IMG/VR virus record: IMGVR_UViG_3300032893_000011
Span: 49,741 to 113,740 of that record
Strand: one strand, 5' to 3'
Source of the DNA: a virus
Length of the DNA stretch: 64,000 bases
The translations under genes were made by a program, and so were the position numbers. This document shows positions 1 to 64,000 of the stretch, in pieces. Numbering within the stretch: position 1 is the stretch's first letter; every line of letters starts with the position of its first letter. A model generated the notes under the pieces. It was not told the origin of the DNA and made no database searches. It saw only the letters and a program-made list of their open reading frames with translations.

Positions 1-165
1 AACACCGGGGTCACCGAAACCATCACCGACCAGGCTGTCTGGTCGTCAAGCTCGGGGGGCACGTTCTACTGGTCGGTGCAGCTGACCCTGTCCAAGGCGT
101 GGGCGTCCGGCGACACGCTGACGCAGAACACCTGCCAGCTAGCCCTTTCGCCGCTGGCCGCCTAA
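1..165 (+). CDS. C-terminal fragment of a virion structural protein (partial)
   Basis: Frame 1 is open from the window edge (NTGVTETITDQAVWSSSSGGTFYWSVQL...SPLAA*) and resembles small actinophage tail-associated proteins. Confidence 0.6.
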   Translation, partial: NTGVTETITDQAVWSSSSGGTFYWSVQLTLSKAWASGDTLTQNTCQLALSPLAA

Positions 166-206
166 GCCGCGCCCGGGGGCACACGGTGGCTGGCTAGGCT
201 CGGCGC

Positions 207-1739
207 ATGACCACAGCACCGCGCGTGCAGGGCCTCATCGGCGCCCTGCAGGTTTGGCTGGCCGCCCACCCGACATCCCCGGAAGCCCCCGACGTGAAGG
301 CGCTCATCCAGGTGTTGGGGACGCCGGCCACGGTGCCCGCGCCGGTCGCGGGCGCGCCGCTGCACGCCCTGGTCGCCGACCTGGCCGCCGTCCTGGACGC
401 CTGGGAAACCAGCCACCCGCTCACCCCGCCACCCCCTCCTCCCCCACCGCCGCCGCCGGTCCCGGTCGTCACGTCGGTCACCCCCAACACGGGCGTCGAC
501 ACCGGCGGCACGACCGTGTCCGTCGCCGGCAGCGGCTTCACCGGGGCCACCGCGGTCGACTTCGGGACCGCCCCGGCCTCGTTCAGCGTCGTGTCCGACG
601 CCGCGGTGTCGGCGGTGTCGCCCGCCGGGGCGGACGCGGCCGTGGACGTGACGGTGACCACCCCGGGCGGCGTGTCCACGACCAGCGCCGTCGACCGGTT
701 CACCTACACCCCGCCCCCACCCCCGCCGCCCCCGCCGCCGCCCGGGCTGCCGCCGCTGTGGAACGCCGCACCGCCCGCCGGGGTGTGCGCGGCACCGAGC
801 GGCCCCTACGTCGGGGTGCCCGGCGACTGGGCGTACGGCATCCAAACCACAACCGAGGTGTTCGACAACTTCGACGGCCCGGCGGGCTCCGCCATCAACC
901 AGACCCTGTGGCAGCTCGACAGCATCAACCAGGGCGGCAACCAGACCTACGACCCGTCCACCGACCGGGTCTACCTCGACGGCGACTCCAACGTGGTCCT
1001 CAAGGCCACCGGCGTCGGCGGCACCTACAGCAACACCAGCTGCGACCATCCCTACATATCGCAGCCCGGCGACACGTGGGCGAGCATCGCCGCGGCGTGG
1101 GGCACCAGCCCCGCGGTCCTGCGGGAGTACGTCAACCAGGGGATCCTCAACGAGGGGGTCACCACGCCGTTCCCGCCGGGCACCGCCATCACCATCCCCA
1201 ACATCAGCGGCCGGTTCACGTCGCGGCAGCGGTTCAACATGGGGCTCGGCTGGTCCGCGGCGCGGGTCAAGTTCCCCAAGTCCGTCGCCCAGACGTCGGG
1301 CCTGTCGTGGTTCCCCGCGGTGTGGCAGCTCTATGTCGCGTACAACCAGCTGCCGGGCAACTATCTCGAAATAGACATGATGGAGATGTTCGGCGACTCC
1401 ACGAAGTACAACACGCACGTCTACCTGCACAAGAACCCGATGACCACGCTGCAGGACGAGCTGCCGGTGCCCAACGGGGTCAACGCCGGCGACGACTTCC
1501 ACACCTACTGGATGCTGCGCACCGCCGACGAGATCCAGATCGGCGTCGACAGCCTGATCATGGGGGCGTGGACGTCGGCTAACGTGCCGGCCGGGGTGTG
1601 GCCCGACACGCAGCAGAGCGTCTATTGGATCATCAACTTCGCCATGGACCCGGGCTACCTGGCGCACCCGAAAGCCAGCGACTTCCCCGCGTACATGCTC
1701 GTCGATTGGGTGTGGTTCAAACCCCTAGCGCTGCTGTGA
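207..1739 (+). CDS. IPT/TIG + LysM + GH16-like glycoside hydrolase, probably virion-associated
   Basis: IPT signature PVVTSVTP..G...GGTTVSVAGSGFTGATAVDFG; LysM-like YISQPGDTWASIAAAWG...ITIP; GH16 motifs WFPAVW, EIDMME, DDFHTYW and MLVDWV; poly-Pro linkers. Confidence 0.8.
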   Translation: MTTAPRVQGLIGALQVWLAAHPTSPEAPDVKALIQVLGTPATVPAPVAGAPLHALVADLAAVLDAWETSHPLTPPPPPPPPPPPVPVVTSVTPNTGVDTGGTTVSVAGSGFTGATAVDFGTAPASFSVVSDAAVSAVSPAGADAAVDVTVTTPGGVSTTSAVDRFTYTPPPPPPPPPPPGLPPLWNAAPPAGVCAAPSGPYVGVPGDWAYGIQTTTEVFDNFDGPAGSAINQTLWQLDSINQGGNQTYDPSTDRVYLDGDSNVVLKATGVGGTYSNTSCDHPYISQPGDTWASIAAAWGTSPAVLREYVNQGILNEGVTTPFPPGTAITIPNISGRFTSRQRFNMGLGWSAARVKFPKSVAQTSGLSWFPAVWQLYVAYNQLPGNYLEIDMMEMFGDSTKYNTHVYLHKNPMTTLQDELPVPNGVNAGDDFHTYWMLRTADEIQIGVDSLIMGAWTSANVPAGVWPDTQQSVYWIINFAMDPGYLAHPKASDFPAYMLVDWVWFKPLALL

Positions 1740-1746
1740 GGTAACC

Positions 1747-2043
1747 GTGGCCGTCGCCTATAGCGCGGTCGGCGCTGGGGCGCACGGCACCAGCATCAAC
1801 GCCCTCGCCTTCACCCACGCTATCGGCGCCTCCGACAACTGCCTGATGGTGGGGGTCGGCGCCTACTACGGCAGCTCCGGCTACTCGAGCTGGACCCGGT
1901 CCTGCGGCATCACGGCAGCGGCCGTTACCTGCGACTCGGTCGGCGCCGGCATCGCCAACGGCAGCTACACCGGCGGCACGGCCCAGACCTGCAGCCACAC
2001 TGTGGTGCACAGCAGCCAGAGCCTACATAGCGACGGGGGATAG
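1747..2043 (+). CDS. Short paralog or remnant of the N-terminal domain of the downstream fibre-like protein
   Basis: AVAYSAVGAG and AVTCDSVGAG resemble MAVIFDAVGAG at the start of the next gene. Confidence 0.5.
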   Translation: MAVAYSAVGAGAHGTSINALAFTHAIGASDNCLMVGVGAYYGSSGYSSWTRSCGITAAAVTCDSVGAGIANGSYTGGTAQTCSHTVVHSSQSLHSDGG

Positions 2044-2046
2044 CCG

Positions 2047-5000
2047 GTGGCTGTCATTTTCGATGCTGTCGGCGCCGGCAACGATGTTTGGGCGCAAACC
2101 ACGGCGACAACCAACATTTCGTGGGCGCATAACGCGGCGTCCGGGGCGTGTGTTATCGCCGGAATGGCCAGCCGCGACACCACAACTTCATCAGCGGCCA
2201 GCACCGACACCAGCGAGTCCTGCAGCTACAACACCGTGGATATGGGCGCGGCGCTGGGCACGTCGAAGCACAACAACTCGAACACCGGCTACGGAAACAC
2301 CACCCTGTTCGGGATGACCGGAGCGCCCAGCGGCTCCAAGACCGTCGCCGCGTCGGTGACCGACACCAACAATGAGGTGACCGGCCTGGCCGGCTGCTCG
2401 GTGTCTTACCTGGGTGTCGGCTCTATCAGCACGTGCTCCACCAACGGCGGCTCGGGCACGACGGCGTCGATTTCGGTGACCGCCCCGGCTGGGGCGATGA
2501 TCGTTGTGGCGTTCGGCGCCCCCAACGGCAGCTTTTCCGCGTTTAACGGCTCAACACGGTACAACCACGCCTCGGCCGGCGGCACCGACGCCGGTTTCAT
2601 GATCGGCGACGTCGCGGCCACCGGTTCGGCGCAAACAATCTCCGCGACAGTCACTAGCGGGTTCTGGTCGGCCATCGCCGTTATTCTGCTGCCGACCATC
2701 CCCGGCGCTGTTTTGAGCCGCGGCACGTCGGTTTCCGGCCCGACCGGCTCCACCTGGACATATACGGGCGGGGCGGCCACCTCCGCCAATGCTTACGACG
2801 GCACTTTCGGCCTGTACCCGGTCACTTACTGCGTGTTCACAACTTCAACCGCCAATGCTGTCGGCACCATCACGCCGGGCGGGTATTTCGGCGCGGCGTC
2901 GGTGCCCACCGACGCCTCTATCACGATCAACGCGGTCTTGCGGGGATATGTCAACACCGTGGCGCGTTGGGCGAGCATCACCGCGCAGTTGTTGGACAGC
3001 GGCGGCTCGGCTATCGGGGCGGCGCAGACGATCACCCTGACCACGGCTGTATCGACGGTCGCGTTCACGCCTAACGTGGCGCCGACGCCGGCGCAGATCA
3101 ACGCTGGGTTGCAGATGCTCGTCACCGCAACTCACGACGGCACGTCGTCGAGCGGCATTTTCCGCCTCGACAACGTCGACATCACGATTTCTTACACGCG
3201 CACGCCCGCCGACGCCGCCCAAACCGTCACAGCCACAGGCGCAGCCACCATCGCCCACAACGCGCCCGTCGACGCCGCCGCAGCCGCCGTCGCATCCCCC
3301 ACGGCCGCCCAGACCGCAGCCCTGCTCGCCAACGCCACCCAGACCGCGACGGCCACGACCGCCGCCACCCTGGTCGGTGCACTGCAAGCGAATGCGGCGC
3401 TGACCGCCACCGCCGCCGCGGCGGCGACCGCTACCCGCGCCGCCGTCTGCGATGCCGCGCAAACCGTCACCGCCGCGCCGACAACAACCCTGACCGCAGC
3501 GCTGTCCGCCAACGCGGCCCAGGCGGCCATCGCCACATCCGCCGCCACCGCGACCCGCGCCGCCGTCTGCGACGCAGCCCAGACGGGCATTGCAACCAGC
3601 GCAGCCACCCTGGCCGCGGCACTGCAAACCAACGCCGCCCAGACGGCCACCGCCGCACCGACCGCGACCCTGACGGCCGCGCTGTCGGCGAACGCGACCC
3701 AGACCGTCGCCGCCAGCCCGGCGGCGCTCGCTGCCGCGGCGCTGCTCTCCAATGCCGCCCAGACGGTGACCGCGGCAGCGGCCGCCGCCGCGACCGCAGC
3801 GCTGCAGGCCAATACGGCGCAGACCGTCACCGCGACCGGGTCGGCTTCGTTAACGGCAGCGCTGCTCGCCAACGGCGCCCAGGCGGTCACGGCAACACCG
3901 GCGGCAACGCTCACCGGGGCGCTTCTGGCCAACGCCGCGCAGGCGGTGACGGCCGCCCCGGCTGCGACCGTCGCGCACAACACGCCAGTCGACGCCGCCG
4001 CAAGCATCGTCGGGTCCGCAGCAGCCACCCTCACCGGGGCGCTTCTGGCCGACGCCGCCCAGGCGGCCACAGCCACCGCGGTAGCCGCCGCCACCAGGGC
4101 GGCGGTCTGCGACGCAACCCAGGCAGTCGTGGCGGCCGCGGCGGCGAGCGCCAACACGGCACTCAACGCAAACGCCGCCCAGACGGCCACGGCAACCGCC
4201 AGTGCCAGCCTGACCGCGGCGCTGCTGGCCAATACGGCGCAGACCGGGATGGCAGCGCCAACCGCCACCCTGGCCGCGGCGCTGTTGAGCAACGCTGCCC
4301 AGACGGCCTCGGCAACCGCGACAGCGACAGCGACCGCCGCGCTGCAGGCCAACGCCGCGCAGGCGGTGACGGCCGCCCCGGCTGCGACCCTGACCGGGGC
4401 CCTGCTCGCCAATGCGGCGCAAACCGCGACGGCCGCGAGTGCCGCCACCCTGGCCGCCGTACTCCTGGGCAACGCCGCACAGGCGGTGACCGCGACCCCA
4501 ACCGCGACCGCGGCCCACAACGCGACCGCCGACACCGCCCAGACCGTCACCGCCACCGGGTTGGCCTCATTGACCGCGGCACTGAAAGCCGACGCCGCCC
4601 AAACCATCACCGCCACCGCCGCGGCCGCCGCCGCCGGAGGCGCCGACGCACCGCAAACCGTTAACGCCACCGCCGCCGCCACCCTGACAGCAGCGCTACT
4701 CGCCAACGCGACACAGACCGTGACCGCAACCGCGGCGACCACCGCCACCCGGGCAGCTGTCTGCGACGCCGCGCAGAGCATCACCGCCGCGCCATCGGCG
4801 AGCGCCACCAGGGCCGCAATATGCGACGCTGCGGCGGCAGTGACAGGCAGCGCCTCGGCAGCACTGACCGCAGCACTGCAAGCCAACGCGGCACAAACGG
4901 GCATAGCCGCTGCGGCTGCCACCCTCGCGCACAACGCTCAACCCGCCGCCGCGCAGACCGTCGCAGCAACCCCGGCCGCAACCCTGACGGCAGGCCTGCT

Positions 5001-6450
5001 GGCCAACACAACCCAGACCATCACAGCCACCGCGGCTGCCAGCGCCACGCGCGCCGCCGTCTGCGACGCAACCCAGGGCATCACAGCGACAGGAGCGGCG
5101 TCGGCGCAGGCCGCGCTGCACGTCGACGCCACGCAAACCGTCAACGCCACCGCGGCTGCCAGCGCCACACGCGCCGCCGTCTGCGCCGACGCCCAGGCGC
5201 TCACTGCCGCCCCAATCGCCGCGCTGGGTGCGGCGCTACTGGCCAACGCCGCGCAGACCGCGGCCGTCGCCCCATCTGCGAGCGTCACCTACGGCGCCCT
5301 GGCCTCCGCCGCGCAAACCGCGACGGCCGCACCCGCCGCCACCGTCAACAAGGCAGCCGCCGCAGACGCCGCCCAAACCGTCAACGCGACAGCCTCGGCG
5401 GCCCTGACCGCGGCCCTGAAAGTCGACGCAGCCCAGAGCATCACTGCGTCCGCCTCGGCCAGCTCGGCGACCGGCCCGCAGGCCACCCAAACCATCGTCG
5501 CGACCCCCTCCGCGAGCCTGACCGCCAACCTGGCGTTGGCCGCCAACCAAACAGTTGGCGCCACCCCGACCGCCGGACTCGCACACAACGCCCCCGCCGA
5601 CGCGGCGCAGGCGCTCACCGCGACCGCGACGGCCACCGCCACCCGATCCGCCACCGCAGACGCCGCCCAAACCGTCAACGCCACCCCGACGGCGAGGGTC
5701 ACCGCGGGCCTGAGGGCCGACGCCAGCCTGACGGTCACCGCCACCACAACAGCTGCCGCCACGACCGGGCCGATGGCAACCCAGGCCGTCACCGCCACCG
5801 CCGCCGCCACCCTGTCCGCAGGGCTGAGAGTCGACGCGACCCAAACCCTCACAGCGACGGGTACAGCGTCGGCGACGCGCGGCGCGCCGCTGGACACCGC
5901 CCTCACCGCCACCGCAACCCCCGCAGCCGCCGCCAGGCTCGATGCCCGAACCGACGCCACCGCAACCGTCAACGCCTCGATAGCGGGAGTGCTCGCCCAG
6001 GGGTTCCACCCCCACCCAACCGACCACGTCGCCATCACCGACGTCTACTACACCTCCGGGGCCGCCACCCCGGCCGACGCCGTCGCGCTCACCGACATCG
6101 CCACCTTCCAACTCGCCCACCGCGTCGCCGCCGCCGACCCCGAAAACCTCATCGACAAGCTCGCGACCCGCCTCGACGCGCAACGCCCCCACACCGACCC
6201 CTTGGCCCTGTCCGACACCGTCGTCGTCAGGCTCTACGGCGGGCCCGCGGTGCTGCACCCCCAGCAGGCCCGGCCCGTGCCCGGCGAACCCAAGCTGCGC
6301 GCACCCGCCCGCGCGCCGCAGCTGTTGACCGTAGCCGCCGAACCCGACCTGCGAGTGCGCCCCAACAGCGAAAAGCTCACCGCCCCCGCCCGGCGCGGCA
6401 CGCTGACCGTGGCGGGGCGCAGCCGGCTGCGCGTCCCCGCCCGCACCTGA
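2047..6450 (+). CDS. Large Ala/Thr-rich repetitive virion (fibre or minor tail) protein
   Basis: 1467 aa; beta-rich N-terminus followed by many approximately 20-aa repeats of consensus NAAQTVTAxxAATLTAALLA. Confidence 0.75.
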   Translation: MAVIFDAVGAGNDVWAQTTATTNISWAHNAASGACVIAGMASRDTTTSSAASTDTSESCSYNTVDMGAALGTSKHNNSNTGYGNTTLFGMTGAPSGSKTVAASVTDTNNEVTGLAGCSVSYLGVGSISTCSTNGGSGTTASISVTAPAGAMIVVAFGAPNGSFSAFNGSTRYNHASAGGTDAGFMIGDVAATGSAQTISATVTSGFWSAIAVILLPTIPGAVLSRGTSVSGPTGSTWTYTGGAATSANAYDGTFGLYPVTYCVFTTSTANAVGTITPGGYFGAASVPTDASITINAVLRGYVNTVARWASITAQLLDSGGSAIGAAQTITLTTAVSTVAFTPNVAPTPAQINAGLQMLVTATHDGTSSSGIFRLDNVDITISYTRTPADAAQTVTATGAATIAHNAPVDAAAAAVASPTAAQTAALLANATQTATATTAATLVGALQANAALTATAAAAATATRAAVCDAAQTVTAAPTTTLTAALSANAAQAAIATSAATATRAAVCDAAQTGIATSAATLAAALQTNAAQTATAAPTATLTAALSANATQTVAASPAALAAAALLSNAAQTVTAAAAAAATAALQANTAQTVTATGSASLTAALLANGAQAVTATPAATLTGALLANAAQAVTAAPAATVAHNTPVDAAASIVGSAAATLTGALLADAAQAATATAVAAATRAAVCDATQAVVAAAAASANTALNANAAQTATATASASLTAALLANTAQTGMAAPTATLAAALLSNAAQTASATATATATAALQANAAQAVTAAPAATLTGALLANAAQTATAASAATLAAVLLGNAAQAVTATPTATAAHNATADTAQTVTATGLASLTAALKADAAQTITATAAAAAAGGADAPQTVNATAAATLTAALLANATQTVTATAATTATRAAVCDAAQSITAAPSASATRAAICDAAAAVTGSASAALTAALQANAAQTGIAAAAATLAHNAQPAAAQTVAATPAATLTAGLLANTTQTITATAAASATRAAVCDATQGITATGAASAQAALHVDATQTVNATAAASATRAAVCADAQALTAAPIAALGAALLANAAQTAAVAPSASVTYGALASAAQTATAAPAATVNKAAAADAAQTVNATASAALTAALKVDAAQSITASASASSATGPQATQTIVATPSASLTANLALAANQTVGATPTAGLAHNAPADAAQALTATATATATRSATADAAQTVNATPTARVTAGLRADASLTVTATTTAAATTGPMATQAVTATAAATLSAGLRVDATQTLTATGTASATRGAPLDTALTATATPAAAARLDARTDATATVNASIAGVLAQGFHPHPTDHVAITDVYYTSGAATPADAVALTDIATFQLAHRVAAADPENLIDKLATRLDAQRPHTDPLALSDTVVVRLYGGPAVLHPQQARPVPGEPKLRAPARAPQLLTVAAEPDLRVRPNSEKLTAPARRGTLTVAGRSRLRVPART
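3190..5990 (+). repeat. Degenerate 60-nt coding tandem repeat
   Basis: A 43-nt exact match at 3927-3969 and 4347-4389 is offset by 420 nt (7 x 60). Confidence 0.8.
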
Positions 6451-6469: not shown

Positions 6470-7255
6470 GTGGGACTCCAATGGCCCGTAGATTTGTTCT
6501 GCCTACCGCCGCTGTCGTCGGCCGACGACGAAGGCGCCGCCAACCAGAACGCGGCGATCAACCTGGCGATCACCACCATGTGGGCCCTGTCCGGGCGCCA
6601 GTACGGGCTCGTCGACCAGATCGTGCGGCCCTGCATCCAGACCATGCCGTGGTGGTCGCGGCGCAGCAGCTACGGCTACTCCGGCGACTACGCCGCCGTC
6701 ACCAGCTACCTACTGTCCTGGGAGGGAGACCGCTGGGTCAACTGGTGGTGCGGCTGCGGCTCCATGTGCCGCCTGTCGGGGCCCGGCGCGGTGCACCTAC
6801 CCGGCCCGGCACGCGAGGTCATCGCCGTCACCATCGGCGACACCATCCTCGACGCCGACCAGTACACCCTGGAAGGGGACATGCTGTACCGGGTCCGCGG
6901 AGCCGCCGACGTCGCCCACGGCCCCGAGAGCCGCGGCCACCACTGGCCCCGCCAGGACCTGTCGCGGCCCATGGGCCACCACAACACGTGGTCGGTGGAG
7001 TACCTGTGCGGCAACCCCGTCCCGCCGGAGCTGGCGCATTTGACCGGGGTGCTGGCCAAGGAGTTCCTGGCCGCCTGCCAGGGCGACAAGTGCCGCCTGC
7101 CCCGCAACGTCACCAACGTGAACCGTGCGGGCGTGTCCTACCAGATCGACACCACCCGCATCCTGGAGGCAGGCAAGACGGGGATAGCCGAGATCGACCT
7201 GTGGCTGGCGGCGGTCAACCCCGCCAAGCTGCAATGCGCACCGTCGGTAATCTAA
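6470..7255 (+). CDS. Head-to-tail adaptor-like protein
   Basis: MWALSGRQYG...VRPC and C-terminal LAKEFLAAC..CRLP..V..VNRAGVS...TGIAEIDLWL..VNP are typical of Cluster B-like actinophage adaptors; position fits. Confidence 0.7.
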   Translation: MGLQWPVDLFCLPPLSSADDEGAANQNAAINLAITTMWALSGRQYGLVDQIVRPCIQTMPWWSRRSSYGYSGDYAAVTSYLLSWEGDRWVNWWCGCGSMCRLSGPGAVHLPGPAREVIAVTIGDTILDADQYTLEGDMLYRVRGAADVAHGPESRGHHWPRQDLSRPMGHHNTWSVEYLCGNPVPPELAHLTGVLAKEFLAACQGDKCRLPRNVTNVNRAGVSYQIDTTRILEAGKTGIAEIDLWLAAVNPAKLQCAPSVI

Positions 7256-9161: not shown

Positions 9162-9190
9162 CCCGGCACCCGCAGCGATAATCTGAGCCG

Positions 9191-54209: not shown

Positions 54210-54484
54210 GCGAGGTCGCGGTCACACCGGAGGCATTGGCGGCCGCCGCCGGGGAGTTCATCGCGTCCCAGCCTCCACCCGCCGCGCCTCCGCTGCCTCC
54301 ATCCGCCGATGCCGCATGCGCGGTCGTAACGGCCGCGACCGCCTCCTGGCCTGCCATTGCCGCCGCCATGTGGGCGCAGCGCCAAGCATCCGCCACCGGC
54401 ATCGCGTCCGCGGCTGGCTACACCAGTATGGATCTGGCGGCCGCCGACATGGACAACGCCACCATGCTAGGGGCAACATTATGA
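54206..54484 (+). CDS. PE-like small protein
   Basis: VAVTPEALAAAA...PPSAD...; YTSMD (YxxxD) near the C-terminus. Confidence 0.6.
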   Translation: MSEVAVTPEALAAAAGEFIASQPPPAAPPLPPSADAACAVVTAATASWPAIAAAMWAQRQASATGIASAAGYTSMDLAAADMDNATMLGATL

Positions 54485-54999: not shown

Positions 55000-57199
55000 C
55001 TACTATTCGGTCATCGCCTCCGGCGGCCCCGACCCCACCGAGGCGATCCGCTACACCGCCGAGCTCGCCGAGCACCACAGCGGGCAAGCCTCTCAACTGG
55101 ACCAGGCGCATTCGCAGACGCTCAACGGCTTCCGGCCGCGCTTCAACGTCGCCAACCACCCTTCCGGGCAGGCAGGGGCAGCGCTCGACAGCGCTATCCA
55201 AGGACACGCCCAGCTGCACGCCGAGCACGCCCAAGCCCACCGCCAGGCCGCCGACGCAGCAGATCAGGCCCGCTACACCCTCCTGGACTACTCCGCCGCT
55301 CGCCACGCCATCGCCACCGACGGCGCCGACGCCTGCGACACCGCCGAACAACAGGGCGGCAAGTACGGCCCCATCGAGGCCGCCGACCTCGCCCAGCAGT
55401 ACCAGGCCCAGGTCACTCAGGCGTGGAGCGGCACCGCCCCCGCAACCACGGCTGCCCTGGACTCCAAGTTCACCCCGCCGCCGGGCACTGCGAAGAAACC
55501 GCACAAGCAGGGTGACGACCCCGACGACCCCGACAGCGGCAAACCCGACGCCGGTGACCCCACTGACGACCGAAAGTTCACCCCAACCCCAGTATCAGCC
55601 GCCCCACAACCCGCAAGCGCAGGCGCAGGCGCAGGAGGGTCACCCGCCAGCGGTGGCTTCACCCCGCCAATGCCCGGCTCAACCCCCAAAATGCCCTCAC
55701 TGTCCTCTGCTGCCAAAACATCGCCAGCATCGGCCCCAAGCCCCAAGATCAGCCCACCCCTGACGGGGTTAAGCCCAGCCAGCCCAACCCCGTCGCCGTC
55801 GGGCCTGTCCACCGCGGCGCCGCGTACAGCCGCAGCGCCACCGGCCCAAAGCGCCGGTGTGGGCAACCTGGGCGCGGCGTTCAACTCGGGTCTGGCCTCG
55901 ACGGGGATGCGTGCGACCCCCGCTCCGATCGCCCAATCAGCCCGGCCGTTGGCGCCGTTCTCAGCCCCGCAGCCCGCGACGGCCGCCCCATTAACGGTAG
56001 CGGGGCAGTCAACGCCGGCGGTGCCTGCGGGGGATGTGCACGGCCCCGCCCCTGCTCTCGCCTCGGCCCCGTCCGGTGGCGGTGGTGTGCCGATGATGGG
56101 CGCCCCGATGGGCTCGGGCCCGCTGGCGCCGTACTCCACCCCCGGTGCGGGCAGCGCAATCTCCGCTCCACCGGCCACGTCGCCTGTGTCCACTGCCGCA
56201 ACCGCGGCTTCGGGCTCCGGCTCCGCTGGTGTAGCGCTGGCGCCTCCCGCAGCGGCGTCGACACAAGCGGCCGTGACCACCCGGGACCCGCACCTGTCGA
56301 CGGCCTTGACTGTCCTGGCGGGCCTGGTGCGGGGCACCGACCTGTGCGGCCTGCGTGTGGCCGTCGGCTGGGCCGTGGGCGTGTTTGAGGTGGCCTGCGT
56401 GCAGCACGTCGTCATCGCGTCTTCGGTGGGCGGGGGCGATTGGATACCGGCCACAGTTTTCCCCCCGGCCGGTGTCAAACTCGCGACCCGCGACCCGCTG
56501 CTGATTGCAGGCTGGGCGGGGGAGCGGTTCATGGGCTGGCAGCGGCCGACGGCCATCCTGGAGGCCCACTTCGAGGCGCTTCGGACGGCGCCGGTGTTCG
56601 ACCCGCGGGTGTTGGCGATCGCCACGACGGAGATGTGGCCGCGCCGCCCGGCCTGCGGCGGCGCGTACGAATCGTTAACAGATCGGGAGGTGCTGAGCCG
56701 CCCCGGCATGGCGCCGGTACTGGACGCGGCGCACACCCATCGGCTGGTAGTGCTGGACCCGGTGTTCGCGGCGCACTTGGGCGGGCTGTGCAACTCGGTG
56801 CCGCCGGAGGGTAGGGCCGCCCGGTACCGGGAGTTGGCGGCCGCGGTAACCGACGCCGTGGTGTCGGCAGCCGGGGAGCCGGACGGCACCGGCGAGATGG
56901 TCGCGGCGCCGGCCGACGCGGACATGTGGGCTAAGGCGAAAGCCTCGGCGGCCACCGAGGAGGATTGGCGGGCGTGGCGCGAGGACGTTGACGGCCGAGA
57001 CTTCCCGGAGATGTACGCACCAAGGGACTTGGACGATTCTTCGGCGTCGGCGGCCGCGCGGCTGTTCTACCGGCACCACTACAGCCGGGCCCGCGTCGCC
57101 GAGCTGGTCGGCTGCTGGCGCAGCTCAGGCGGCTTGTTCGACGTCGCCTATTGCGGGATCACCGCCGGCTACGGGCCGCAGCTCGCCGCCGCTGTGTAA
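54992..57199 (+). CDS. EspK-like ESX-associated protein
   Basis: Helical N-terminus with PSGQAG, long Pro/Ser/Ala linker, globular C-terminus with WAVGV...IASS.GGG.WIP..V..P...HRL..LDP. Confidence 0.65.
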   Translation: MTDYYSVIASGGPDPTEAIRYTAELAEHHSGQASQLDQAHSQTLNGFRPRFNVANHPSGQAGAALDSAIQGHAQLHAEHAQAHRQAADAADQARYTLLDYSAARHAIATDGADACDTAEQQGGKYGPIEAADLAQQYQAQVTQAWSGTAPATTAALDSKFTPPPGTAKKPHKQGDDPDDPDSGKPDAGDPTDDRKFTPTPVSAAPQPASAGAGAGGSPASGGFTPPMPGSTPKMPSLSSAAKTSPASAPSPKISPPLTGLSPASPTPSPSGLSTAAPRTAAAPPAQSAGVGNLGAAFNSGLASTGMRATPAPIAQSARPLAPFSAPQPATAAPLTVAGQSTPAVPAGDVHGPAPALASAPSGGGGVPMMGAPMGSGPLAPYSTPGAGSAISAPPATSPVSTAATAASGSGSAGVALAPPAAASTQAAVTTRDPHLSTALTVLAGLVRGTDLCGLRVAVGWAVGVFEVACVQHVVIASSVGGGDWIPATVFPPAGVKLATRDPLLIAGWAGERFMGWQRPTAILEAHFEALRTAPVFDPRVLAIATTEMWPRRPACGGAYESLTDREVLSRPGMAPVLDAAHTHRLVVLDPVFAAHLGGLCNSVPPEGRAARYRELAAAVTDAVVSAAGEPDGTGEMVAAPADADMWAKAKASAATEEDWRAWREDVDGRDFPEMYAPRDLDDSSASAAARLFYRHHYSRARVAELVGCWRSSGGLFDVAYCGITAGYGPQLAAAV

Positions 57200-57229
57200 G
57201 TGAAGGTGTGAGGTGATGGGGGTGAGCCA

Positions 57230-57451
57230 ATGAGCGGGGATATCAGCCTGCGCTGCTGCGACGCCGGGTGCAACGGAAACCACTATGGACTGACGGCCGA
57301 CGAGTTCCACGACTTGGCCGAATACAACGGTTGGCGCTCCTGCGGACTCAACGTCGGTGAACCCTTACGACCCGATGGCGACCTAGACCGAGAGCACCGC
57401 ATGATGCTGCTGCAACACCGCTACGACAGCTACACGTTCGGCGATGAGTGA
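57230..57451 (+). CDS. Small hypothetical protein
   Basis: GAGGTG upstream; Cys-containing. Confidence 0.45.
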   Translation: MSGDISLRCCDAGCNGNHYGLTADEFHDLAEYNGWRSCGLNVGEPLRPDGDLDREHRMMLLQHRYDSYTFGDE

Positions 57452-57482
57452 GATGACGACAAAACACGCCGGTGTGTGCGAA

Positions 57483-57511
57483 TTGACTCACACTGTTGCT
57501 CATGTGAGGAT
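57483..57511 (+). promoter_or_regulatory. Putative promoter
   Basis: TTGACT-N17-GAGGAT with an internal CTCACA/TGTGAG inverted repeat. Confidence 0.4.
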
Positions 57512-57540
57512 GACCATCAGTCGAGCAAGAAGGAGCCACC

Positions 57541-57792
57541 TTGACCACGGTCGACCAGGTCGCTGCTACCGCAGTGTCAGCCCTCGGCACCATTGAAGTG
57601 GAGGTGTCGGCCGCCGGTTTCGTGACCGGCGTGCGCCTGCACCGAGACGAGGCGCGGCGCTGGAGCTCGTGGCTGTTCGGCGACCGGGTGGTCGACGTCG
57701 CCAGGGTGGCCCACGACAGGTTCCGCTGCGCCCAGGTCGGCACACCGTCACCCGGTGAGGTTGCCGCCCGCGAGCAGAAACTGAGGTTCTGA
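57541..57792 (+). CDS. YbaB-fold (EspD/EspH/DUF2694-like) protein
   Basis: AAGGAG RBS; S..GTIEVEVSAAG....VRL......W....GDRVV.VA.VA. Confidence 0.55.
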   Translation: MTTVDQVAATAVSALGTIEVEVSAAGFVTGVRLHRDEARRWSSWLFGDRVVDVARVAHDRFRCAQVGTPSPGEVAAREQKLRF

Positions 57793-57793
57793 A

Positions 57794-58081
57794 ATGCGCA
57801 AGCGGCCCGAGCCGCCCATCGGCGGCCTGCCGGTGCTGCCCGACCCGCTGGAGTGGCACATCCTCGAAGTCGACAACTTATCGGTACCGGGTGAACCGGC
57901 AATCGGGATAGTCATCCGCAACCGGCTGACCCACCTGGACGCCCAGGCGATGTCCCTGAACGTGGCCGGGCTGCGACTGGAGGAGATACCGGGGGCGGTG
58001 GAGCGCGCCGCCCTGGACGTGTGGGAGGCCTACCAGCGCCGACGGGCCATCTCGGAGCTGATCGCAGAAAGGTGGCGGTAG
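57794..58081 (+). CDS. Hypothetical protein
   Basis: ORF abutting both neighbours. Confidence 0.5.
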   Translation: MRKRPEPPIGGLPVLPDPLEWHILEVDNLSVPGEPAIGIVIRNRLTHLDAQAMSLNVAGLRLEEIPGAVERAALDVWEAYQRRRAISELIAERWR

Positions 58082-59509
58082 ATGGACCCGTTCGAGTTCA
58101 TCCGCTCGATGAATTCCCTGTTCAGTCTGCTGTCCGGCAAACCCGACACCCAGCCCGCCCCTACCACCGGGCCCACCGACGGGCCGACACCCCCGCCGGG
58201 CCCGATCTTCGGCCCGGCCGCAGCCCCCCCGCCACCTCCCGCACCGCCCCCGCCCGCCCCTGGTCCCCCGCCCCCTGCGACAGGGCAGGCCGCCGACGCA
58301 GCCGCCGCGGACGCGGCGAAAAGCGGCGTCACCGTCGAGGCTTTGGCTGAGCTTGACCGCGACTCGGCCGACACCCTCGCCAAGATCCAGTCGGCCGGGC
58401 AGGAGGGGCAGCGCCAGCTCGATGCCATCCAAAGCGATTTGAACGCCGAGATCGCCCGCCTGGGCCCGACGCTGAACACCCCGTCCGGGCAGCAGCGGCT
58501 ACGCGAGGTGCTTAAGGACAAGCTGTCCGCCGCTAAGGGCGTGATCGATGCGCATATGGCCGCGGCGTCGGACGCGGCGAAACGCACGCACGACCTGACG
58601 TCCAAGTACGCCGGGACGGGCAACCCCGACGACACCCCGACCACCCCGGCGGCCGCCCCGCCACCGGCCGACGACAACCCGCCACCCGCCCCTGCTCCCA
58701 CCCCGCCGCCGGCACCTGCGGCGGACACGTCGGCAACCCCGGCGGCAGCGCAGCCGACCGGCATGCCGATGGGCGGCGGGATGCCGATGGGCGGCGGGAT
58801 GCCGATGCCGTCGCTGGGTGGCATGGTGCCGTCGTTGAGCGGGCTGCCCGGCATGGGCGGCGGCGGCCCGTCGTTCGGCGACCCCGGAGGCGGCTCGGGT
58901 GACCGACCGCCGTCGTTCCACGACGACACCGGCCCGGCGAACGACAAGCCCAAGGCCACCGCGTTCCACGACGACCCCGACACACCCAAGCCCGCCGCAG
59001 CGCACGACACCACCGACCCGGCGCACCCCGACCAGGCGCACCCCGACCCAACTGCAACTACACCGGCCGCGACGACACCCGCCGCGCCAAACCAGCCCCC
59101 CGACCCCGGCCACGGGACGGACGTGCGCTGGCCGGACGGCACCACGGTCGTGCAGGCCCGCAACCCCGTCGCCGCCGCGGCAGCCAACGCCGCCACGCAC
59201 GGCGCCACCGTCGAGGACGCCTATAAGCGGGCCGGGATCACGCTGCCCCCGCCGGGCACCCCGGTAACCGACCCGCTGCCGCCGACCGACCTGCACGCCG
59301 GTGACATCGGTGTGTACAAGGACCACATGGTGATGGCCCTGGGCAACGGCAAGGTCCTCGTCAACGGGCAGCCGCAGCCGCTGGGCTCGCTCGGGTCGTC
59401 GGATGCGTTCCTCGGATGGATCGACCCGACGAGACACGCCCCGCAGCCCGCATCTGCGCCCACCCCGCCCGCACCTGCGCCGCAGCCGGTGCCCCTGGCG
59501 CTGTCGTAA
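58082..59509 (+). CDS. DUF4226-like ESX-associated protein
   Basis: LD....D.L......G...LDAI..D...L..TPSGQ..L...L.DK; C-terminal AYKRAGITLPPPG...DL.AGDIG...MALGNGK...FLGW. Confidence 0.7.
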   Translation: MDPFEFIRSMNSLFSLLSGKPDTQPAPTTGPTDGPTPPPGPIFGPAAAPPPPPAPPPPAPGPPPPATGQAADAAAADAAKSGVTVEALAELDRDSADTLAKIQSAGQEGQRQLDAIQSDLNAEIARLGPTLNTPSGQQRLREVLKDKLSAAKGVIDAHMAAASDAAKRTHDLTSKYAGTGNPDDTPTTPAAAPPPADDNPPPAPAPTPPPAPAADTSATPAAAQPTGMPMGGGMPMGGGMPMPSLGGMVPSLSGLPGMGGGGPSFGDPGGGSGDRPPSFHDDTGPANDKPKATAFHDDPDTPKPAAAHDTTDPAHPDQAHPDPTATTPAATTPAAPNQPPDPGHGTDVRWPDGTTVVQARNPVAAAAANAATHGATVEDAYKRAGITLPPPGTPVTDPLPPTDLHAGDIGVYKDHMVMALGNGKVLVNGQPQPLGSLGSSDAFLGWIDPTRHAPQPASAPTPPAPAPQPVPLALS

Positions 59510-59521
59510 AAGGGGCGACTG

Positions 59522-60583
59522 GTGGGCCTGGCGGCGTTTGTGCAGTCGGCGGGTGCGGCGATGGGGGCCGCCCGCGACAGCTTCGGCACCGGCGGGGCCG
59601 TGCCGCCCCCGGCCAGTGTGGGCACCCCACCGGGTCCAGCCCCCGCGTCCGGGCAGGCCGCCGCCGCCGCCCTCGCCGACGGCAACACCATCCACGGTGT
59701 TGTGGCCACGCTTGAGGGCCACGACCAGGCCGCGGCCGAGCAGCTGATCGCCGCCGCGGCCGCCTCCAACGCCGGGCGTGACGCGATAGACGCCGCGATC
59801 ACGGCGGCCCTGGCCGACATCGCCGCGCTCGGCGAATCCGTCGACACCCCGCAGGGGCAGGCGGACCTGGTGGCGGCGATCAAAACGCACCTGCAGGACG
59901 CCAAAACGGTCGTGGACACGGGCAGCGCCGACGCCTCGACGCGGGCCGCCGCCGCGCACACCATCGCCGCCACCTACGCAACCCCGTCGGCGCCAATGAC
60001 GTCCATGCCGTCCGCGCCGACAGCGCCGCCGACCGCGACGCCGATGAGCTGGGGCCCCGCGCCGACACGCGCCGACGCCAGCCCCGTCTACGGCCCCGCC
60101 GACCCCCCGCTGGACGCCGCCGCCCACCTGCCCGCCGCCTCGGTGTCCGACCCGCCGGTCAGCGGCGACCGGGCCAGCGTCGCCCGCTACATCTACCGCA
60201 CCGCCCGCGCACACGGCTACAGCCCGCACGACGCCCTGGCGATCACCGCCTACGCCGACGGGGAGTCGTCATTCCGTCCGACCGTGAGCCCAGGCGCCCA
60301 GTACGCCGCCGGTTCGGGCGGCGACGCCTACGCCAACACTGTTGTGGGGCTGTTCCAGGAGAAACCCGCCTTCGCCTCCGATGTGGGGATCGACCCTGCG
60401 CTGCGCTACACCGTGGAGGGCAACACGGAGGCCTACCTGCGCCAGCTCGCCGCGCATCCCGGAGGCGACATCTTCGACCGGCTGCTGGCGACCTCGGTGG
60501 GCGGGCCGATGTACACCGGCGGTAGATCGAAGATGCAAGAATTGATGGCCGCGACCCGTCAGCTGATCGGCGAGCCGACGTGA
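59522..60583 (+). CDS. DUF4226-like protein with a lytic-transglycosylase-like C-terminus
   Basis: GRDAIDA.I..A.AD...DTPQGQ; ARAHGYSP..A.AI....GESSF.P...GLFQEKP. Confidence 0.7.
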   Translation: MGLAAFVQSAGAAMGAARDSFGTGGAVPPPASVGTPPGPAPASGQAAAAALADGNTIHGVVATLEGHDQAAAEQLIAAAAASNAGRDAIDAAITAALADIAALGESVDTPQGQADLVAAIKTHLQDAKTVVDTGSADASTRAAAAHTIAATYATPSAPMTSMPSAPTAPPTATPMSWGPAPTRADASPVYGPADPPLDAAAHLPAASVSDPPVSGDRASVARYIYRTARAHGYSPHDALAITAYADGESSFRPTVSPGAQYAAGSGGDAYANTVVGLFQEKPAFASDVGIDPALRYTVEGNTEAYLRQLAAHPGGDIFDRLLATSVGGPMYTGGRSKMQELMAATRQLIGEPT

Positions 60584-61650
60584 GCGGCCTGGCGGCGTTT
60601 GTGCAGTCGGCGGGTGCGGCGATGGGCTTCGCCCGCGACAGCTTCGGCACCGGCACCCCCGCCGGGCCCGACCCTGCGCCGCCGCCCGCGCCCCCGGCTG
60701 CCATACCCGGCGCCTCCGGGCAGGCCGCCGACGGGTTCACTGGAGAGTCCGACAACATCGGCGGGCAGGTCGACGGGTTAGACGCCAACGACACTGCCGC
60801 CGCCGCGCAGCTGGCGGCCGCCGCGCAGGCCTCCGGCGCCGGCCGGGGACGCATGGAGGCGGTGATCGCCGCCGCCGTCGCCGACGTGCACGCCCTGGGG
60901 TTCGCCACCAACACCCCCGCCGGGCAGGCCGCCCTGATCGCCGCGATCAAGACACACCTGCAGCAGACCCAAACCAACCTGGACGCGGGCAGCGCCGACG
61001 CGGGCACCCACGCAGCCGCGTCGGGCGCCACCGCCGCCGCCTACCGCGGCGCCACGACACCGGCCGCTTCGGGCGCCGCGATGCCGCAGATGGGGCAGCT
61101 GGTCTCCGGGATCACACCGCTGGCGTCGGCCGCTGGCGCCCCCCTGCAGGCCCTGTCCGGGCTGGGCGGTTCGATGCCGCAGATGATGGCACCGCTGGCG
61201 TCCATGAGCAGCCCCGCCGCGCCGCACTACGGCAAGGCTGAGGACGCTGCGGCGATGCCCGAACTGGCGGGTGAGCCGCTGGCCACCGGGCAGCCGACCG
61301 CCGCGACAGAGGCCGCCCGCCGCGCGCTGTCGCAGCTCGGGAAGCCCTACGGGTGGGGCTCCGCCGGACCGTCGTCCTACGACTGCTCCGGCCTGTGCCA
61401 GTGGAGCTACCGGGGCGTCGGGGTGAACCTGCCGCGGGAAACCTACGACATGGTCCACGTCGGGCAGACCGTGCCCCGCGACCAGGTACGCGCCGGGGAT
61501 CTGGTGTTCTCCAACTTCTCGGCCCGCGGTCCCGAGCATGTGCAGATGGCGATAAGCCCGACACAGGTGGTCGAGGCTCCCACACCCGGCGGGCACGTAC
61601 AAGTAAGCTCGATACCCAATAGCGTCATTGTCAAGCGGGTGGTGGTGTGA
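60580..61650 (+). CDS. DUF4226-like protein with an NlpC/P60 peptidase domain
   Basis: LGKPYGWG..GP..YDCSGL..WSY..GV.LPR...GDLVF...HV.M. Confidence 0.85.
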   Translation: MSGLAAFVQSAGAAMGFARDSFGTGTPAGPDPAPPPAPPAAIPGASGQAADGFTGESDNIGGQVDGLDANDTAAAAQLAAAAQASGAGRGRMEAVIAAAVADVHALGFATNTPAGQAALIAAIKTHLQQTQTNLDAGSADAGTHAAASGATAAAYRGATTPAASGAAMPQMGQLVSGITPLASAAGAPLQALSGLGGSMPQMMAPLASMSSPAAPHYGKAEDAAAMPELAGEPLATGQPTAATEAARRALSQLGKPYGWGSAGPSSYDCSGLCQWSYRGVGVNLPRETYDMVHVGQTVPRDQVRAGDLVFSNFSARGPEHVQMAISPTQVVEAPTPGGHVQVSSIPNSVIVKRVVV

Positions 61651-61762: not shown

Positions 61763-61900
61763 ATGCTGCCGGGACTGATCCGTCTACTGAGGTCGTGGCG
61801 GCACTACTACCACCACGGGCCCGTCTGCCATCCCTGCCCGTTCTGCTGCTGCCCCACCTGCTGGGGATGCGACGAGCTGGAGGCGCGATGCCGGGGCTGA
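61763..61900 (+). CDS. Small His/Cys-rich peptide
   Basis: GGAG RBS; HYYHH..CHPCPFCCCPTCWGC. Confidence 0.4.
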   Translation: MLPGLIRLLRSWRHYYHHGPVCHPCPFCCCPTCWGCDELEARCRG

Positions 61901-63381
61901 ACTACGCCAGCTGGGAGCAGGTGCAGGGCTGGCGGTTCCTGGCGCACCGCGGCGCCGTCGCGATCGGCCGCCGCAACGTGCGCCTCGTGCACGACCCGAG
62001 CAAGAACGCGGGCGCGTCCCTGCTCGTCGGCACCGTCCTGTCCGTGTTCGTCGTCGGCCTGTGCTTCCTGCTGGCGGTGCTCAAACCGATGGGGCTTGTC
62101 GGGCACAACCGCATCGTGTCGGACCGGGCCAGCGCAGCCCTCTACGTCGACATCGACGGCGTGATGCACCCCGCCCTCAATCTGGCTTCGGCGCGGCTGA
62201 TCACCGGCTCGCCCGACGATCCGAAAGCCGCCCCGATCAGCGAAATCCACCAGCTGCCGATCGGCCCCACCGTGGGCATACCCGGCGCCCCCACCGACCT
62301 GGCCGTGCGCGGCCCCGCCGACACCGACTGGGGGATCTGCGACACGCTCGGCTCGACCGGCTCGCAGGTCACCCCCCGCACCACCGTGCTCGGCGGCCGC
62401 CCAGTCCTGCAGGACTGGGCCAGCGTCCTGCAGGCCCCGCGGGCGGTGCTGATGACCTACGGTGCCGACAACTACGTCGTGACCGGCGGGCAGCGCTCAC
62501 AGATCGATTTGACCGACCGGGCGGTCACCCTGGCCTTGGGCCTGCCGGTCGGGGACCTGCACCCCGCGCCGATGTCGCAGGCCCTCTACGAGGCCCTTAC
62601 CCCGTCGCCGCCCATGCGGGTGCCCGACATCCCCGGCCCCGGCGGGCCCGTGGGCTACGCGATGCCCGATGCCCCGGTGGTGTCGGGCACGGTGCTGCGC
62701 ACCGACGACGTCGGCACGGTGCAGTGGTTCGCGGCGCTGCCCGCCGGTGTGCAGCGCATCCCAGCCACCGCCGCGGAGATGATCGCCAACTCCGGTGGTC
62801 AGGTGATGAACGTCCACTCGCGGGTGGTCGCGGCGATGCCGCAGGCGGTCGGGTTCGACACGTCGGTCTACCCTCCGGGCCATTTGCAGCTCGCAGACAA
62901 GGGCGACGAGCCGGTCACGTGCGTGGCGTGGCGCAAAACGTCGGGGGAGCCCCGCGCGCAGATCAGTGTGGTGAGCGGGCGGCGCCTGCCGATCCCGATG
63001 GGCGACGAACGCCGCGTCATCAGTCTGGTGCAGGCCGGGCAGGGCGCCGCGGACGCAGTGTGGCTGGCCCCTGACTCGGCGAACTGGGTGCAGGTCACCG
63101 GCGTCGAACCCGCCTCGGGCCGGGCGGAGAGCCTGTGGTTCGTCAGCGACACCGGGGTGCGGTTCGGCGTCCCCGCGGGCCGCAACGACCAGACACGCCG
63201 GGCGTTGGGCCTGGAGGATGCGCCGACACCGGCGCCGTGGACGGTGCTGCGATGGCTGCCCGCCGGGCCCGCCCTGACGAAGTCGGCGGCCCTGTCCGAG
63301 CACGACACCCTGCCCCTCGACCCGACCGCGCAGGGGGCGTCGTCTTCGGTGCTCGGAACAACCGTGGCTGGCCTAGCCTAG
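61888..63381 (+). CDS. eccB: Type VII secretion membrane component EccB
   Basis: QV.GWRF...HDP, TM helix, KP.G, LYV.IDG..HPALNLASARL, GIPGAP, W.ICD, PVTCV.W, GVRFGV, PAPW, GP.L...AL.EHDTL. Confidence 0.92.
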   Translation: MPGLNYASWEQVQGWRFLAHRGAVAIGRRNVRLVHDPSKNAGASLLVGTVLSVFVVGLCFLLAVLKPMGLVGHNRIVSDRASAALYVDIDGVMHPALNLASARLITGSPDDPKAAPISEIHQLPIGPTVGIPGAPTDLAVRGPADTDWGICDTLGSTGSQVTPRTTVLGGRPVLQDWASVLQAPRAVLMTYGADNYVVTGGQRSQIDLTDRAVTLALGLPVGDLHPAPMSQALYEALTPSPPMRVPDIPGPGGPVGYAMPDAPVVSGTVLRTDDVGTVQWFAALPAGVQRIPATAAEMIANSGGQVMNVHSRVVAAMPQAVGFDTSVYPPGHLQLADKGDEPVTCVAWRKTSGEPRAQISVVSGRRLPIPMGDERRVISLVQAGQGAADAVWLAPDSANWVQVTGVEPASGRAESLWFVSDTGVRFGVPAGRNDQTRRALGLEDAPTPAPWTVLRWLPAGPALTKSAALSEHDTLPLDPTAQGASSSVLGTTVAGLA

Positions 63382-63561
63382 ATGCGCTACCGCGGCACGG
63401 GTCCGAAATTCTACAAGGTCAGCCAGCGCAAGGTGGTTTACCGCTGGTCAGATATCCGGGCCTACTTGGAGGCCAACATGGTCGAGGCCGACCAGCAGAT
63501 CACCGAAATTCTGAACACCGCAACCATCGTAGAGGCCACAGAAAAGGGCAGCCAGGAATGA
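63350..63561 (+). pseudogene. N-terminally truncated AlpA/excisionase-like HTH gene, in frame with eccB
   Basis: VLGTTVAGLA*MRYRGTGPKFYKVSQRKVVYRWSDIRAYL. Confidence 0.7.
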
Positions 63562-64000
63562 AACCTCAGATAAAACTCGGGCAGCCCCTGACCGGCGAAC
63601 AACTCGAGCGGATACATGAACTACGTGATCAATGGATGGAGACCGGGCTGTCGACCGAACGGTGTGATCGCCCGGCCGCCGAAGCCGCTGTGCGAGCCGT
63701 GTATCGGTCCGCCGGACTGAAAGAACCTGAACTTTTCATTTGGATGGACTCACCGCTCGGAGGCGCTCTCGCCGCTGCGACAGTGCGTCAGCTGCTCTCA
63801 ATGGGCCAGCTCGGCGACCGGCTCGCGGGCCAGCTCACGGAAGAGCTCAGGGGCCAGCTCAGGGGCCAGCTCACGGAAGAGCTCTGGGACCAGCTCAGGG
63901 GCCAGCTCGGGGGCCAGCTCTGGGGCCAGCTCAGGGGCCAGCTCGCGGGCCCGCTCGGGGGCCAGCTCTGGGGCGAGCTCGGGAACCAGCTCACGGAAGA
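63558..64000 (+). CDS. DUF6745-like protein with xxQL tetrapeptide repeats (partial)
   Basis: W...GLSTE..DR..AEAAV..VY..AGL..P....W.DSP followed by GQLRGQLWDQL repeats. Confidence 0.7.
   Translation, partial: MKPQIKLGQPLTGEQLERIHELRDQWMETGLSTERCDRPAAEAAVRAVYRSAGLKEPELFIWMDSPLGGALAAATVRQLLSMGQLGDRLAGQLTEELRGQLRGQLTEELWDQLRGQLGGQLWGQLRGQLAGPLGGQLWGELGNQLTE
63803..64000 (+). repeat. 12-nt coding tandem repeat (GGCCAGCTCNNN)
   Basis: Directly visible; runs to the window end. Confidence 0.85.

Follow-up and report, generated by a model that had tools for sequence, protein, structure and literature searches.

The DNA considered here is a 64-kb stretch (64,000 nucleotides, hereafter the window) that corresponds to the last 64 kb, bases 49,741-113,740, of a single 113,740-bp contig, IMG/VR record IMGVR_UViG_3300032893_000011; coordinates given below as window refer to this stretch and those given as contig to the whole record. 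The contig is a metagenome-type record of class linear, with a CheckV completeness of 100% and a GC content of about 69%, and its host is probably a high-GC member of the Mycobacteriaceae. It carries the genes of a tailed phage together with three blocks of genes (termed A, B and C) typical of mycobacterial conjugative plasmids of the pRAW type. An interpretation made from the letters of the window alone (the sequence-only reading) had described one element combining a phage virion and lysis arm, a MobF relaxase with an origin of transfer (oriT) and an ESX cassette, and we compared this description with the complete contig and with related phages and plasmids.

Block B is centered on a MobF (TrwC-type) relaxase fused to an AAA_30 helicase (1748-1761 aa), encoded on the minus strand at window 41577-46862 and recognized by Pfam with 280 bits for TrwC and 180 bits for AAA_30. 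Its YY motif and its HxDxxxxxxHxH block align to the TrwC crystal structures and its GxGKT P-loop is invariant in 22 homologues, which confirms the earlier description of a relaxase-helicase with intact Tyr, HUH and Walker motifs. The protein is 52% identical over 1000 aa to the product of an M. aubagnense plasmid mobF and 55-64% identical to many Mycobacteriaceae relaxases. The oriT of the sequence-only reading is kept only as a candidate, namely the 220-bp intergenic region upstream of mobF that separates it from its divergent neighbor (window 46863-47083). This region contains one weak inverted repeat, and has a motif of ~20 nt and a GGGCCGTT word in common with the same intergenic region of NZ_CP122995.1, the 168-kb plasmid of Mycolicibacterium aubagnense that served, with pSMC-4_4 (NZ_CP079872.1), as a reference throughout this work. 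The two plasmid-backbone genes that follow on the plus strand (window 47084-48222) encode a 199-aa protein, divergent from mobF, and a 163-aa HTH_3 regulator; they show 39% and 53% identity to genes of NZ_CP122995.1, where the 199-aa gene adjoins mobF in the same position. A 468-aa minus-strand open reading frame (ORF) at window 46885-48291 was rejected as spurious because the plus-strand genes that it overlaps have plasmid homologues.

Block C, on the plus strand, consists of nine genes (window 52058-61650) followed by eccB, and was delimited by Pfam and by tblastn collinearity with NZ_CP122995.1 from 122 to 111 kb. The nine genes encode, in order, proteins of 105 aa, 491 aa (PPE domain), 121 aa, 227 aa, 762 aa, 83 aa, 475 aa (DUF4226), 353 aa (DUF4226 plus a lysozyme-like domain) and 356 aa (NlpC/P60). 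The final gene, eccB (window 61795-63381), is full length (T7SS_ESX1_EccB, 443 bits, profile positions 4-473 of 474) and its product is 62% identical to that of the plasmid eccB. All ten genes between window 52,058 and 63,381 thus match the plasmid order gene for gene. Judged by this collinearity, block C is the plasmid segment lying upstream of eccC, cut directly after eccB, and the ESX part is a shortened remnant of the backbone, not a cassette acquired as cargo. Of a complete ESX locus (EccB, EccC, EccD, EccE, MycP) only EccB is present on the record: no gene of the FtsK/EccC family was found anywhere on the contig, and tblastn of the contig with the ORFs of two ESX plasmids detected no EccD, EccE, MycP, EccA or esx pair. 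The ESX cassette proposed earlier therefore stands as far as its full-length EccB is concerned and does not amount to a secretion system.

The last segment of the window (63382-64000, plus strand) contains a rearrangement junction and the end of the contig. Immediately after eccB lies the C-terminal 59-aa half of an Xis/AlpA-like helix-turn-helix protein, which has its own ATG (window 63382-63561); the eccB frame closes at a TAG inside this would-be gene (window 63331-63561), and the missing N-terminal half would extend across the TAG into the end of eccB. The junction looks like a scar left by recombination, in which eccC and the genes downstream of it were removed. The sequence then ends with the first 147 aa of a DUF6745 protein, reaching into a tandem repeat inside which the contig halts, and the DUF6745 family occurs in many bacterial genomes. 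What had been taken for a return of phage-type genes after 63.4 kb is thus an Xis-like fragment and a DUF6745 fragment.

The third plasmid block, A, is located at the opposite end of the contig (contig 14-6,996) and encodes a TcpC-like protein, a 90-aa protein with two transmembrane segments, a 924-aa VirB4-like ATPase (Pfam AAA_10, with a Walker A motif) and a 729-aa polytopic, VirB6-like protein with at least 7 hydrophobic segments. TcpC and VirB4 share one locus (contig 14-4124) and match the "conjugal transfer protein" and "ATP-binding protein" of NZ_CP122995.1 and NZ_CP079872.1 with 48-54% and 54-57% identity respectively, the closest VirB4 relatives (54-57%) being located on mycobacterial plasmids; the VirB6-like protein is 41-45% identical to its counterparts on the reference plasmids. 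In the remainder of the contig, which the sequence-only reading had proposed to search, capsid, portal, TerL and VirB4 genes were thus recovered, and integrase, EccC and VirD4 genes were absent.

Both reference plasmids display the same arrangement: a block of DUF4226 and hydrolase genes with eccB, then eccC to eccA, VirD4, the group formed by TcpC, a small protein, VirB4 and a membrane protein of ~700 aa, a further ~7 kb with other genes, and finally mobF, which converges on the TcpC-VirB4-membrane protein group. When the two contig ends are joined, tblastn shows that the three blocks of the element retain this cyclic order and orientation. Read as a circle, the element would consist of mobF with its neighbor and the HTH regulator, the ESX-upstream block up to eccB, the TcpC, two-transmembrane, VirB4 and VirB6-like genes, and again mobF converging on them. 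The plasmid share amounts to about 25 kb, with ~84 kb of phage DNA inserted between the VirB6-like gene and mobF and ~4 kb (carrying DUF932 and ProQ-like genes) between the mobF neighbors and the ESX block. Plasmid blocks B and C/A have orthologues of gp63, gp80 and gp70 of Gordonia phage Evaa on both sides (INTERLEAVING): a gp63-like gene precedes the relaxase, a DUF932 gene (gp80-like, 58%) is found between the relaxase and ESX blocks, and an HNH gene (gp70-like) occurs just after the VirB6-like gene. Since counterparts of the Evaa right arm thus flank the plasmid blocks, phage and plasmid sequences are interleaved and do not result from one clean insertion. We consider that the contig probably represents a real, single mosaic mobile element, built on a pRAW-type plasmid frame with phage DNA in its variable segments, and assign to this reading a probability of roughly 0.55. 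The element is probably plasmid-borne and at least mobilizable.

The reverse history, in which a mycobacterial tailed phage swapped its replication module for the relaxase-helicase and a partial type IV/type VII mating apparatus, was also considered. Such a phage would be non-integrated and would move both as virions and by conjugation or mobilization, and its relaxase might start a rolling-circle replication feeding packaging. We regard this scenario as unlikely; a plasmid backbone that took in phage DNA fits the data at least as well as a phage that took in a relaxase.

An assembly that erroneously joined a phage contig to plasmid contigs of the same sample would also bring these genes together, and the metagenomic origin and linear class of the record are compatible with such an error. 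At least four false joins would be required, which moreover would have to restore the gene order and orientation of the plasmid, and no repeats are present at the phage/plasmid junctions. By exact-sequence look-up we found a second, 126,132-bp contig in ENA that carries nine proteins from both parts of the element, among them the same VirB4, TerL, portal, adaptor, tail tube, relaxase, DUF932 and EccB proteins and three more block proteins, with a capsid protein differing at two residues from that of the element; copies of the proteins in JGI differ only at residue 1, a V in place of M. A further ENA contig of 109,033 bp encodes near-identical TerL and adaptor proteins, with one substitution each, and the same look-up traced no variant of a plasmid-block protein to it. 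Since proteins of both the phage and the plasmid parts recur on the 126,132-bp contig, a chimera is unlikely, and we leave it a very slight chance only. The contiguity assumed by the sequence-only reading was accordingly supported, by a second assembly with the same combination, by junctions devoid of repeats and by the lack of an insert bounded by att sites.

Two sequence signatures found in both parts of the element argue in the same direction. The first is a ~90-bp cassette composed of a TATAAT promoter, a leader and an AGGAGG ribosome-binding site, identified by self-BLAST, alignment and an exact 27-mer scan. Two copies are present on the plus strand at window 48224-48316 and 48980-49073 (contig 98.0 and 98.7 kb), and a third on the minus strand in the phage/cargo part (contig 18460-18573); no copy was found in scans of IMG/VR and JGI metagenomes. 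Two of the copies precede short leader ORFs of 15 and 41 codons, and the one at contig 18.5 kb drives a gene for a PE-PPE-domain hydrolase with a predicted signal peptide. The second signature is the 8-bp palindrome CGTTAACG, present in 15 copies against ~0.9 expected (~16-fold), when other palindromes of the same composition average 0.7 copies with a maximum of 4. It spans contig 5415-88099, with sites in the window at 3848, 4659, 35578 and 38352, and none of the related plasmid and phage loci that we compared contains it. Four copies lie inside the plasmid-derived VirB6-like gene, at positions where the homologues use other codons, and the presence of this element-specific 8-mer within a plasmid-derived gene is a further point against a chimera. 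Coding copies are read as Val-Asn (GTT AAC) or Leu-Thr (TTA ACG), which involve rare codons, GTT making up about 5% of the Val codons. The palindrome is probably, to judge from its distribution, a protein-binding or modification site. The shared cassette and CGTTAACG link the phage and plasmid parts and are signs of a shared history. Base composition was less informative: GC content is 71-73% in the plasmid blocks and 66-69% in the phage parts, and a tetranucleotide and GC comparison of the blocks did not DISCRIMINATE, every block looking mycobacterial. A 15-mer common to contig 14.56 kb and to the pentamer array described below was dismissed as a chance match.

Several observations weigh against the interpretation of the contig as a plasmid-framed mosaic. 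Both contig ends are open, no terminal overlap between them was found and circularity is unproven. The 5' end falls in TcpC, in mid-operon, indicating that the element extends past the record, and integration into a chromosome is possible with a contig open at such a point. No VirD4 was detected on the contig, whether the searches used FtsK_SpoIIIE or the VirD4 ORFs of two plasmids; both reference plasmids have VirD4 8-9 kb upstream of TcpC, the gene at which the contig starts, so that its absence from the record is not its absence from the element. With the coupling protein and the ESX core missing and a scar after eccB, the transfer system may be a decaying remnant. No homologue of the Rep or ParA proteins of the reference plasmids was found on the contig, so that maintenance as a plasmid is assumed and the term phage-plasmid is unproven. 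Finally, the JGI and ENA contigs may come from one sample or from related ones, which would limit their independence.

Transfer of pRAW requires both virB4 and eccC (PMC4173767), and the conjugative scheme of the Mycobacteriaceae comprises a relaxase, TcpC, VirB4, a coupling protein and a type VII secretion system (PMC8190616); a record without a coupling protein and a full ESX locus is by the latter scheme mobilizable, not conjugative.

The open ends leave room for a chromosomal pRAW-type conjugative element with a prophage inside or beside it, in tandem or nested, of which the contig would be only the island. Close homologues of the relaxase are found not only on plasmids but also on contigs of chromosome size (5.9-6.1 Mb), and a parallel exists in Streptococcus, where phages along with integrative conjugative elements are reported to accrete in tandem (PMC13651849). 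No tRNA was found in the 64-kb window, and neither housekeeping genes nor any other chromosomal gene were seen on the 113.7-kb contig, in agreement with the earlier remark that no host genes intervene. Searches with the Phage_integrase and Recombinase families revealed no tyrosine or large serine recombinase on the contig, no att-like direct repeats above chance were present at any junction, and phage genes occupy at least two segments between the plasmid blocks, unlike what a site-specific tandem would give. We therefore hold an integrated element to be decidedly unlikely and retain the plasmid-framed mosaic.

The phage share of the element was characterized with Pfam and PHROGs. Its morphogenesis, packaging and lysis gene set is complete, from TerL through lysins A and B. 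TerL, the portal, the MuF/protease (1383 aa), the hexamer and pentamer proteins of the capsid and the tail tube are all encoded upstream of the window. Gordonia phage Evaa and the Cluster B mycobacteriophages have TerL and capsid proteins with 55-64% identity to those of the element, and the contig is collinear with Evaa 1-32 kb from 18.6 kb (ParB-like nuclease) to 76 kb (minor tails). The late arm in the window (1-28563, plus strand) corresponds to Evaa 16.8-32 kb, with 35-53% identity. It comprises a TIG/GH16 protein (window 225-1739), a 1467-aa repetitive minor-tail-like protein (2047-6450), a head-tail adaptor (6470-7255), a tail assembly chaperone (8694-9161), a 2178-aa tape measure (9191-15727), minor tail proteins (15745-26610), lysin A (26631-27623) and a cutinase-like lysin B (27628-28563), so that the tail and lysis genes reported as intact are indeed so from adaptor to lysin B. 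On the minus strand, leftward phage genes including small ORFs and a match to PHROG 3290 (window 28567-34471) contain the phage recombination genes noted earlier, a RecT-type single-strand annealing protein (31430-32500) and a PD-(D/E)XK (DUF3799) exonuclease (33017-33934). Rightward early-type genes, again with small ORFs (window 34819-41149, plus strand), include an Evaa gp38-like helix-turn-helix protein (34819-35286), the gp63-like DNA-binding protein (36664-37290, 41-51% identity) and a ParB_N-domain protein (38444-39724) with two overlapping CGTTAACG sites in its promoter region. The phage-derived segment that separates plasmid blocks B and C (window 49074-51867, plus strand) also carries small ORFs, next to the DUF932 gene (49074-50129) and a ProQ-C-like gene (50909-51238), both recognized by Pfam. 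DUF932 shows 57-59% identity to Evaa gp80 and to gp88-93 of Cluster B, which are right-arm genes, and in this element DUF932 is not specifically a gene of leading regions as the sequence-only reading would have it.

No homologue of the Evaa Pol I, RepA-like helicase, DNA helicase or RecB-like exonuclease was found on the contig. By this comparison the module of Pol I and helicase with which its nearest relative replicates has been lost from the phage, and no helicase other than the relaxase-helicase was found on the contig. This absence, and the position of the relaxase after the lysis and recombination genes, where the relatives have their replication genes, would suit a takeover of the relaxase-helicase as the phage replication initiator, acting by rolling circle as HUH Rep proteins do, with the other plasmid genes as hitch-hiking remnants. 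The protein is nevertheless a typical full-length plasmid MobF with its usual neighbor and a candidate oriT, and ~18 kb of other intact transfer-associated genes have been retained. No tailed phage is known to us to be replicated by a MobF relaxase, and we consider this takeover very unlikely.

The element might also be a true dual-route phage-plasmid, which would travel whole in its own virions in addition to relaxase-mediated transfer. Its virion, lysis and packaging genes are intact, it has no integrase, its plasmid blocks are interleaved with phage genes and a promoter cassette is common to both parts; a ParB_N protein with CGTTAACG sites in its promoter region, and the scattering of this site over contig 5.4-88 kb, can be added to this list. 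The main obstacle is size: relatives by capsid and terminase, in terms of known genomes or near-complete records, measure 57-76 kb, against at least 114 kb for the element (at least 113.7 kb as recorded and probably at least 126 kb). Packaging and virion spread of the whole element are doubtful in view of this difference. Furthermore, the contig revealed no replicon, ParA or phage replication module, and no immunity repressor was identified. Dual mobility is plausible but unproven, and a fully dual-route phage-plasmid appears to us rather improbable.

The preferred reading, a pRAW-type plasmid frame with phage DNA in its variable segments, suggests the following behavior. The element would be kept as a plasmid, which we infer because no integrase is present. 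MobF would nick at an oriT in the 220 bp upstream of mobF, and transfer would proceed via a pRAW-type apparatus. To this apparatus the element itself would contribute TcpC, VirB4, its polytopic membrane protein, cell-wall hydrolases and EccB, whereas a coupling protein and an ESX core would have to be encoded either past the ends of the contig or on a helper plasmid in the same cell. The phage module appears to be expressible and may form particles and lyse the cell. These particles would probably be too small for the whole element, the ancestral size being able to hold roughly contig 18.5-91 kb.

The combination of a phage module with plasmid transfer genes was not found in 50,697 phage records, 72,556 plasmids, the IMG/VR relatives or 401 Mycobacteriaceae genomes. 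No related terminase is present on mycobacterial plasmids in PLSDB, and TrwC is absent from five IMG/VR relatives of the terminase. A related capsid gene occurs in 11 of the 401 Mycobacteriaceae genomes, and none of the four best of these eleven has a relaxase on the capsid contig. Neither the relaxase nor EccB gave a match when scanned singly against IMG/VR, and none came from EccB in JGI metagenomes or from an NCBIfam search of ten backbone proteins; megablast of the window against phages and plasmids returned only patches of 50-1100 bp. The only phage-database records matching both EccB and the relaxase are those of "Mycobacterium phage Adler" (KF981876, KC960489), which we rejected as a precedent: they are labeled UNVERIFIED_ORG, and their first 50 kb are annotated with EccB, EccC, EccD, VirD4, a relaxase and a P450, with no virion gene. 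Adler is a pRAW-like plasmid filed as a phage and a source of false "phage with ESX" matches. The search for co-occurring phage and TrwC or EccB genes that had been suggested thus yielded nothing comparable beyond this plasmid record.

Among known systems, the pRAW-type plasmids (pRAW, pMAH135, pMyong1), whose core is described in PMC4173767, share with the element the MobF/TraA relaxase, the operon of TcpC, small protein, VirB4 and ~700-aa membrane protein, and the block of DUF4226 proteins, hydrolases, NlpC/P60 and eccB. NZ_CP122995.1 and NZ_CP079872.1 have the same cyclic order and orientation, with 41-62% protein identity. In contrast to these plasmids, the record of the element lacks eccC, eccD, eccE, mycP, eccA, the esx pair, espG, VirD4 and ParA, and ~88 kb of phage DNA is found at the sites of pRAW-type accessory genes. 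Evaa and the Cluster B phages (Rosebush, Stinger, Cooper) display the same order from ParB-like nuclease/TerL to portal, protease, two capsid proteins, tail tube, tape measure and minor tails, and have the right-arm genes for DUF932, the gp63-like DNA-binding protein and HNH in common with the element (35-64% identity). Their genomes are 59.6-72 kb long and encode Pol I, a RepA-like helicase and a DNA helicase, all three of which the element lacks, whereas the element has RecT and the exonuclease, the ParB_N protein, conjugation genes, a TET/JBP-type operon and many glycosyltransferases. Phage-plasmids such as P1, N15 and SSU5, or the mycobacterial Cluster A phages with parABS, resemble the element in their tailed-phage genes, lack of integrase and plasmid-type genes; they are defined by plasmid replication and partition genes, whereas the plasmid share of the element consists of transfer genes. 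According to published surveys, phage-plasmids almost never carry relaxases (PMC7969092, PMC10879196), and no phage-plasmid was present among 72 mycobacterial plasmids (PMC7969092).

Additional features were observed in the phage part. The 1467-aa ORF at window 2047-6450 has internal repeats on a 120-bp scale and a strongly skewed composition; the minor tail protein family matches only its first 216 aa, and a GC3-based gene caller failed to call it. A 731-aa tail protein (window 22512-24707) combines a PE-PPE-type hydrolase domain with DUF7172, and is followed by a second tail-chaperone paralogue (Phage_TAC_16 and DUF7240, window 24707-25360), 15 kb from the first. The non-coding segment that lies upstream of the ParB_N gene (window 37967-38160) begins with ~150 nt made up of G-rich GGCNN pentamers and continues into a perfect hairpin of 14 bp; this array and hairpin (listed as window 37967-38115) could be an origin, a centromere-like site or a structured element. 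Outside the window, just before TerL and joined to it, an operon (contig 18585-24465) encodes a ParB-like nuclease, a TET/JBP oxygenase, an amino-acid:DNA transferase, an Asp/Asn-hydroxylase-like protein and a P-loop nucleotide kinase, which likely form a DNA hypermodification pathway. At least 6 sugar-modifying genes are spread through the phage part (contig 9047-13575, 24535-26151 and 46651-49309), including an epimerase/dehydratase-methyltransferase fusion, a methyltransferase and several glycosyltransferases, and suggest virion glycosylation. Within contig 33057-39962, the portal (916 aa against 609 aa in Evaa) and the MuF/protease (1383 aa against 802 aa) have PHROG matches broken into separate stretches, a pattern compatible with inserted inteins.

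As routes of gene flow, phages and conjugative plasmids are treated separately. The element described here pairs an intact virion set with an intact set of relaxase, VirB4 and TcpC, and is an unusual mosaic among phage-plasmid hybrids. With its interleaved segments, shared promoter cassettes and both gene sets, it constitutes a natural test case for dual-route transfer, that is, for whether one molecule can use two routes, how such hybrids originate and what limits them, capsid size being the obvious candidate. It also bears on the movement of ESX and type IV-like conjugation genes among mycobacteria. If it were only a plasmid that swallowed a phage, it would still be a product of phage-plasmid recombination, in a group from which none had been known.

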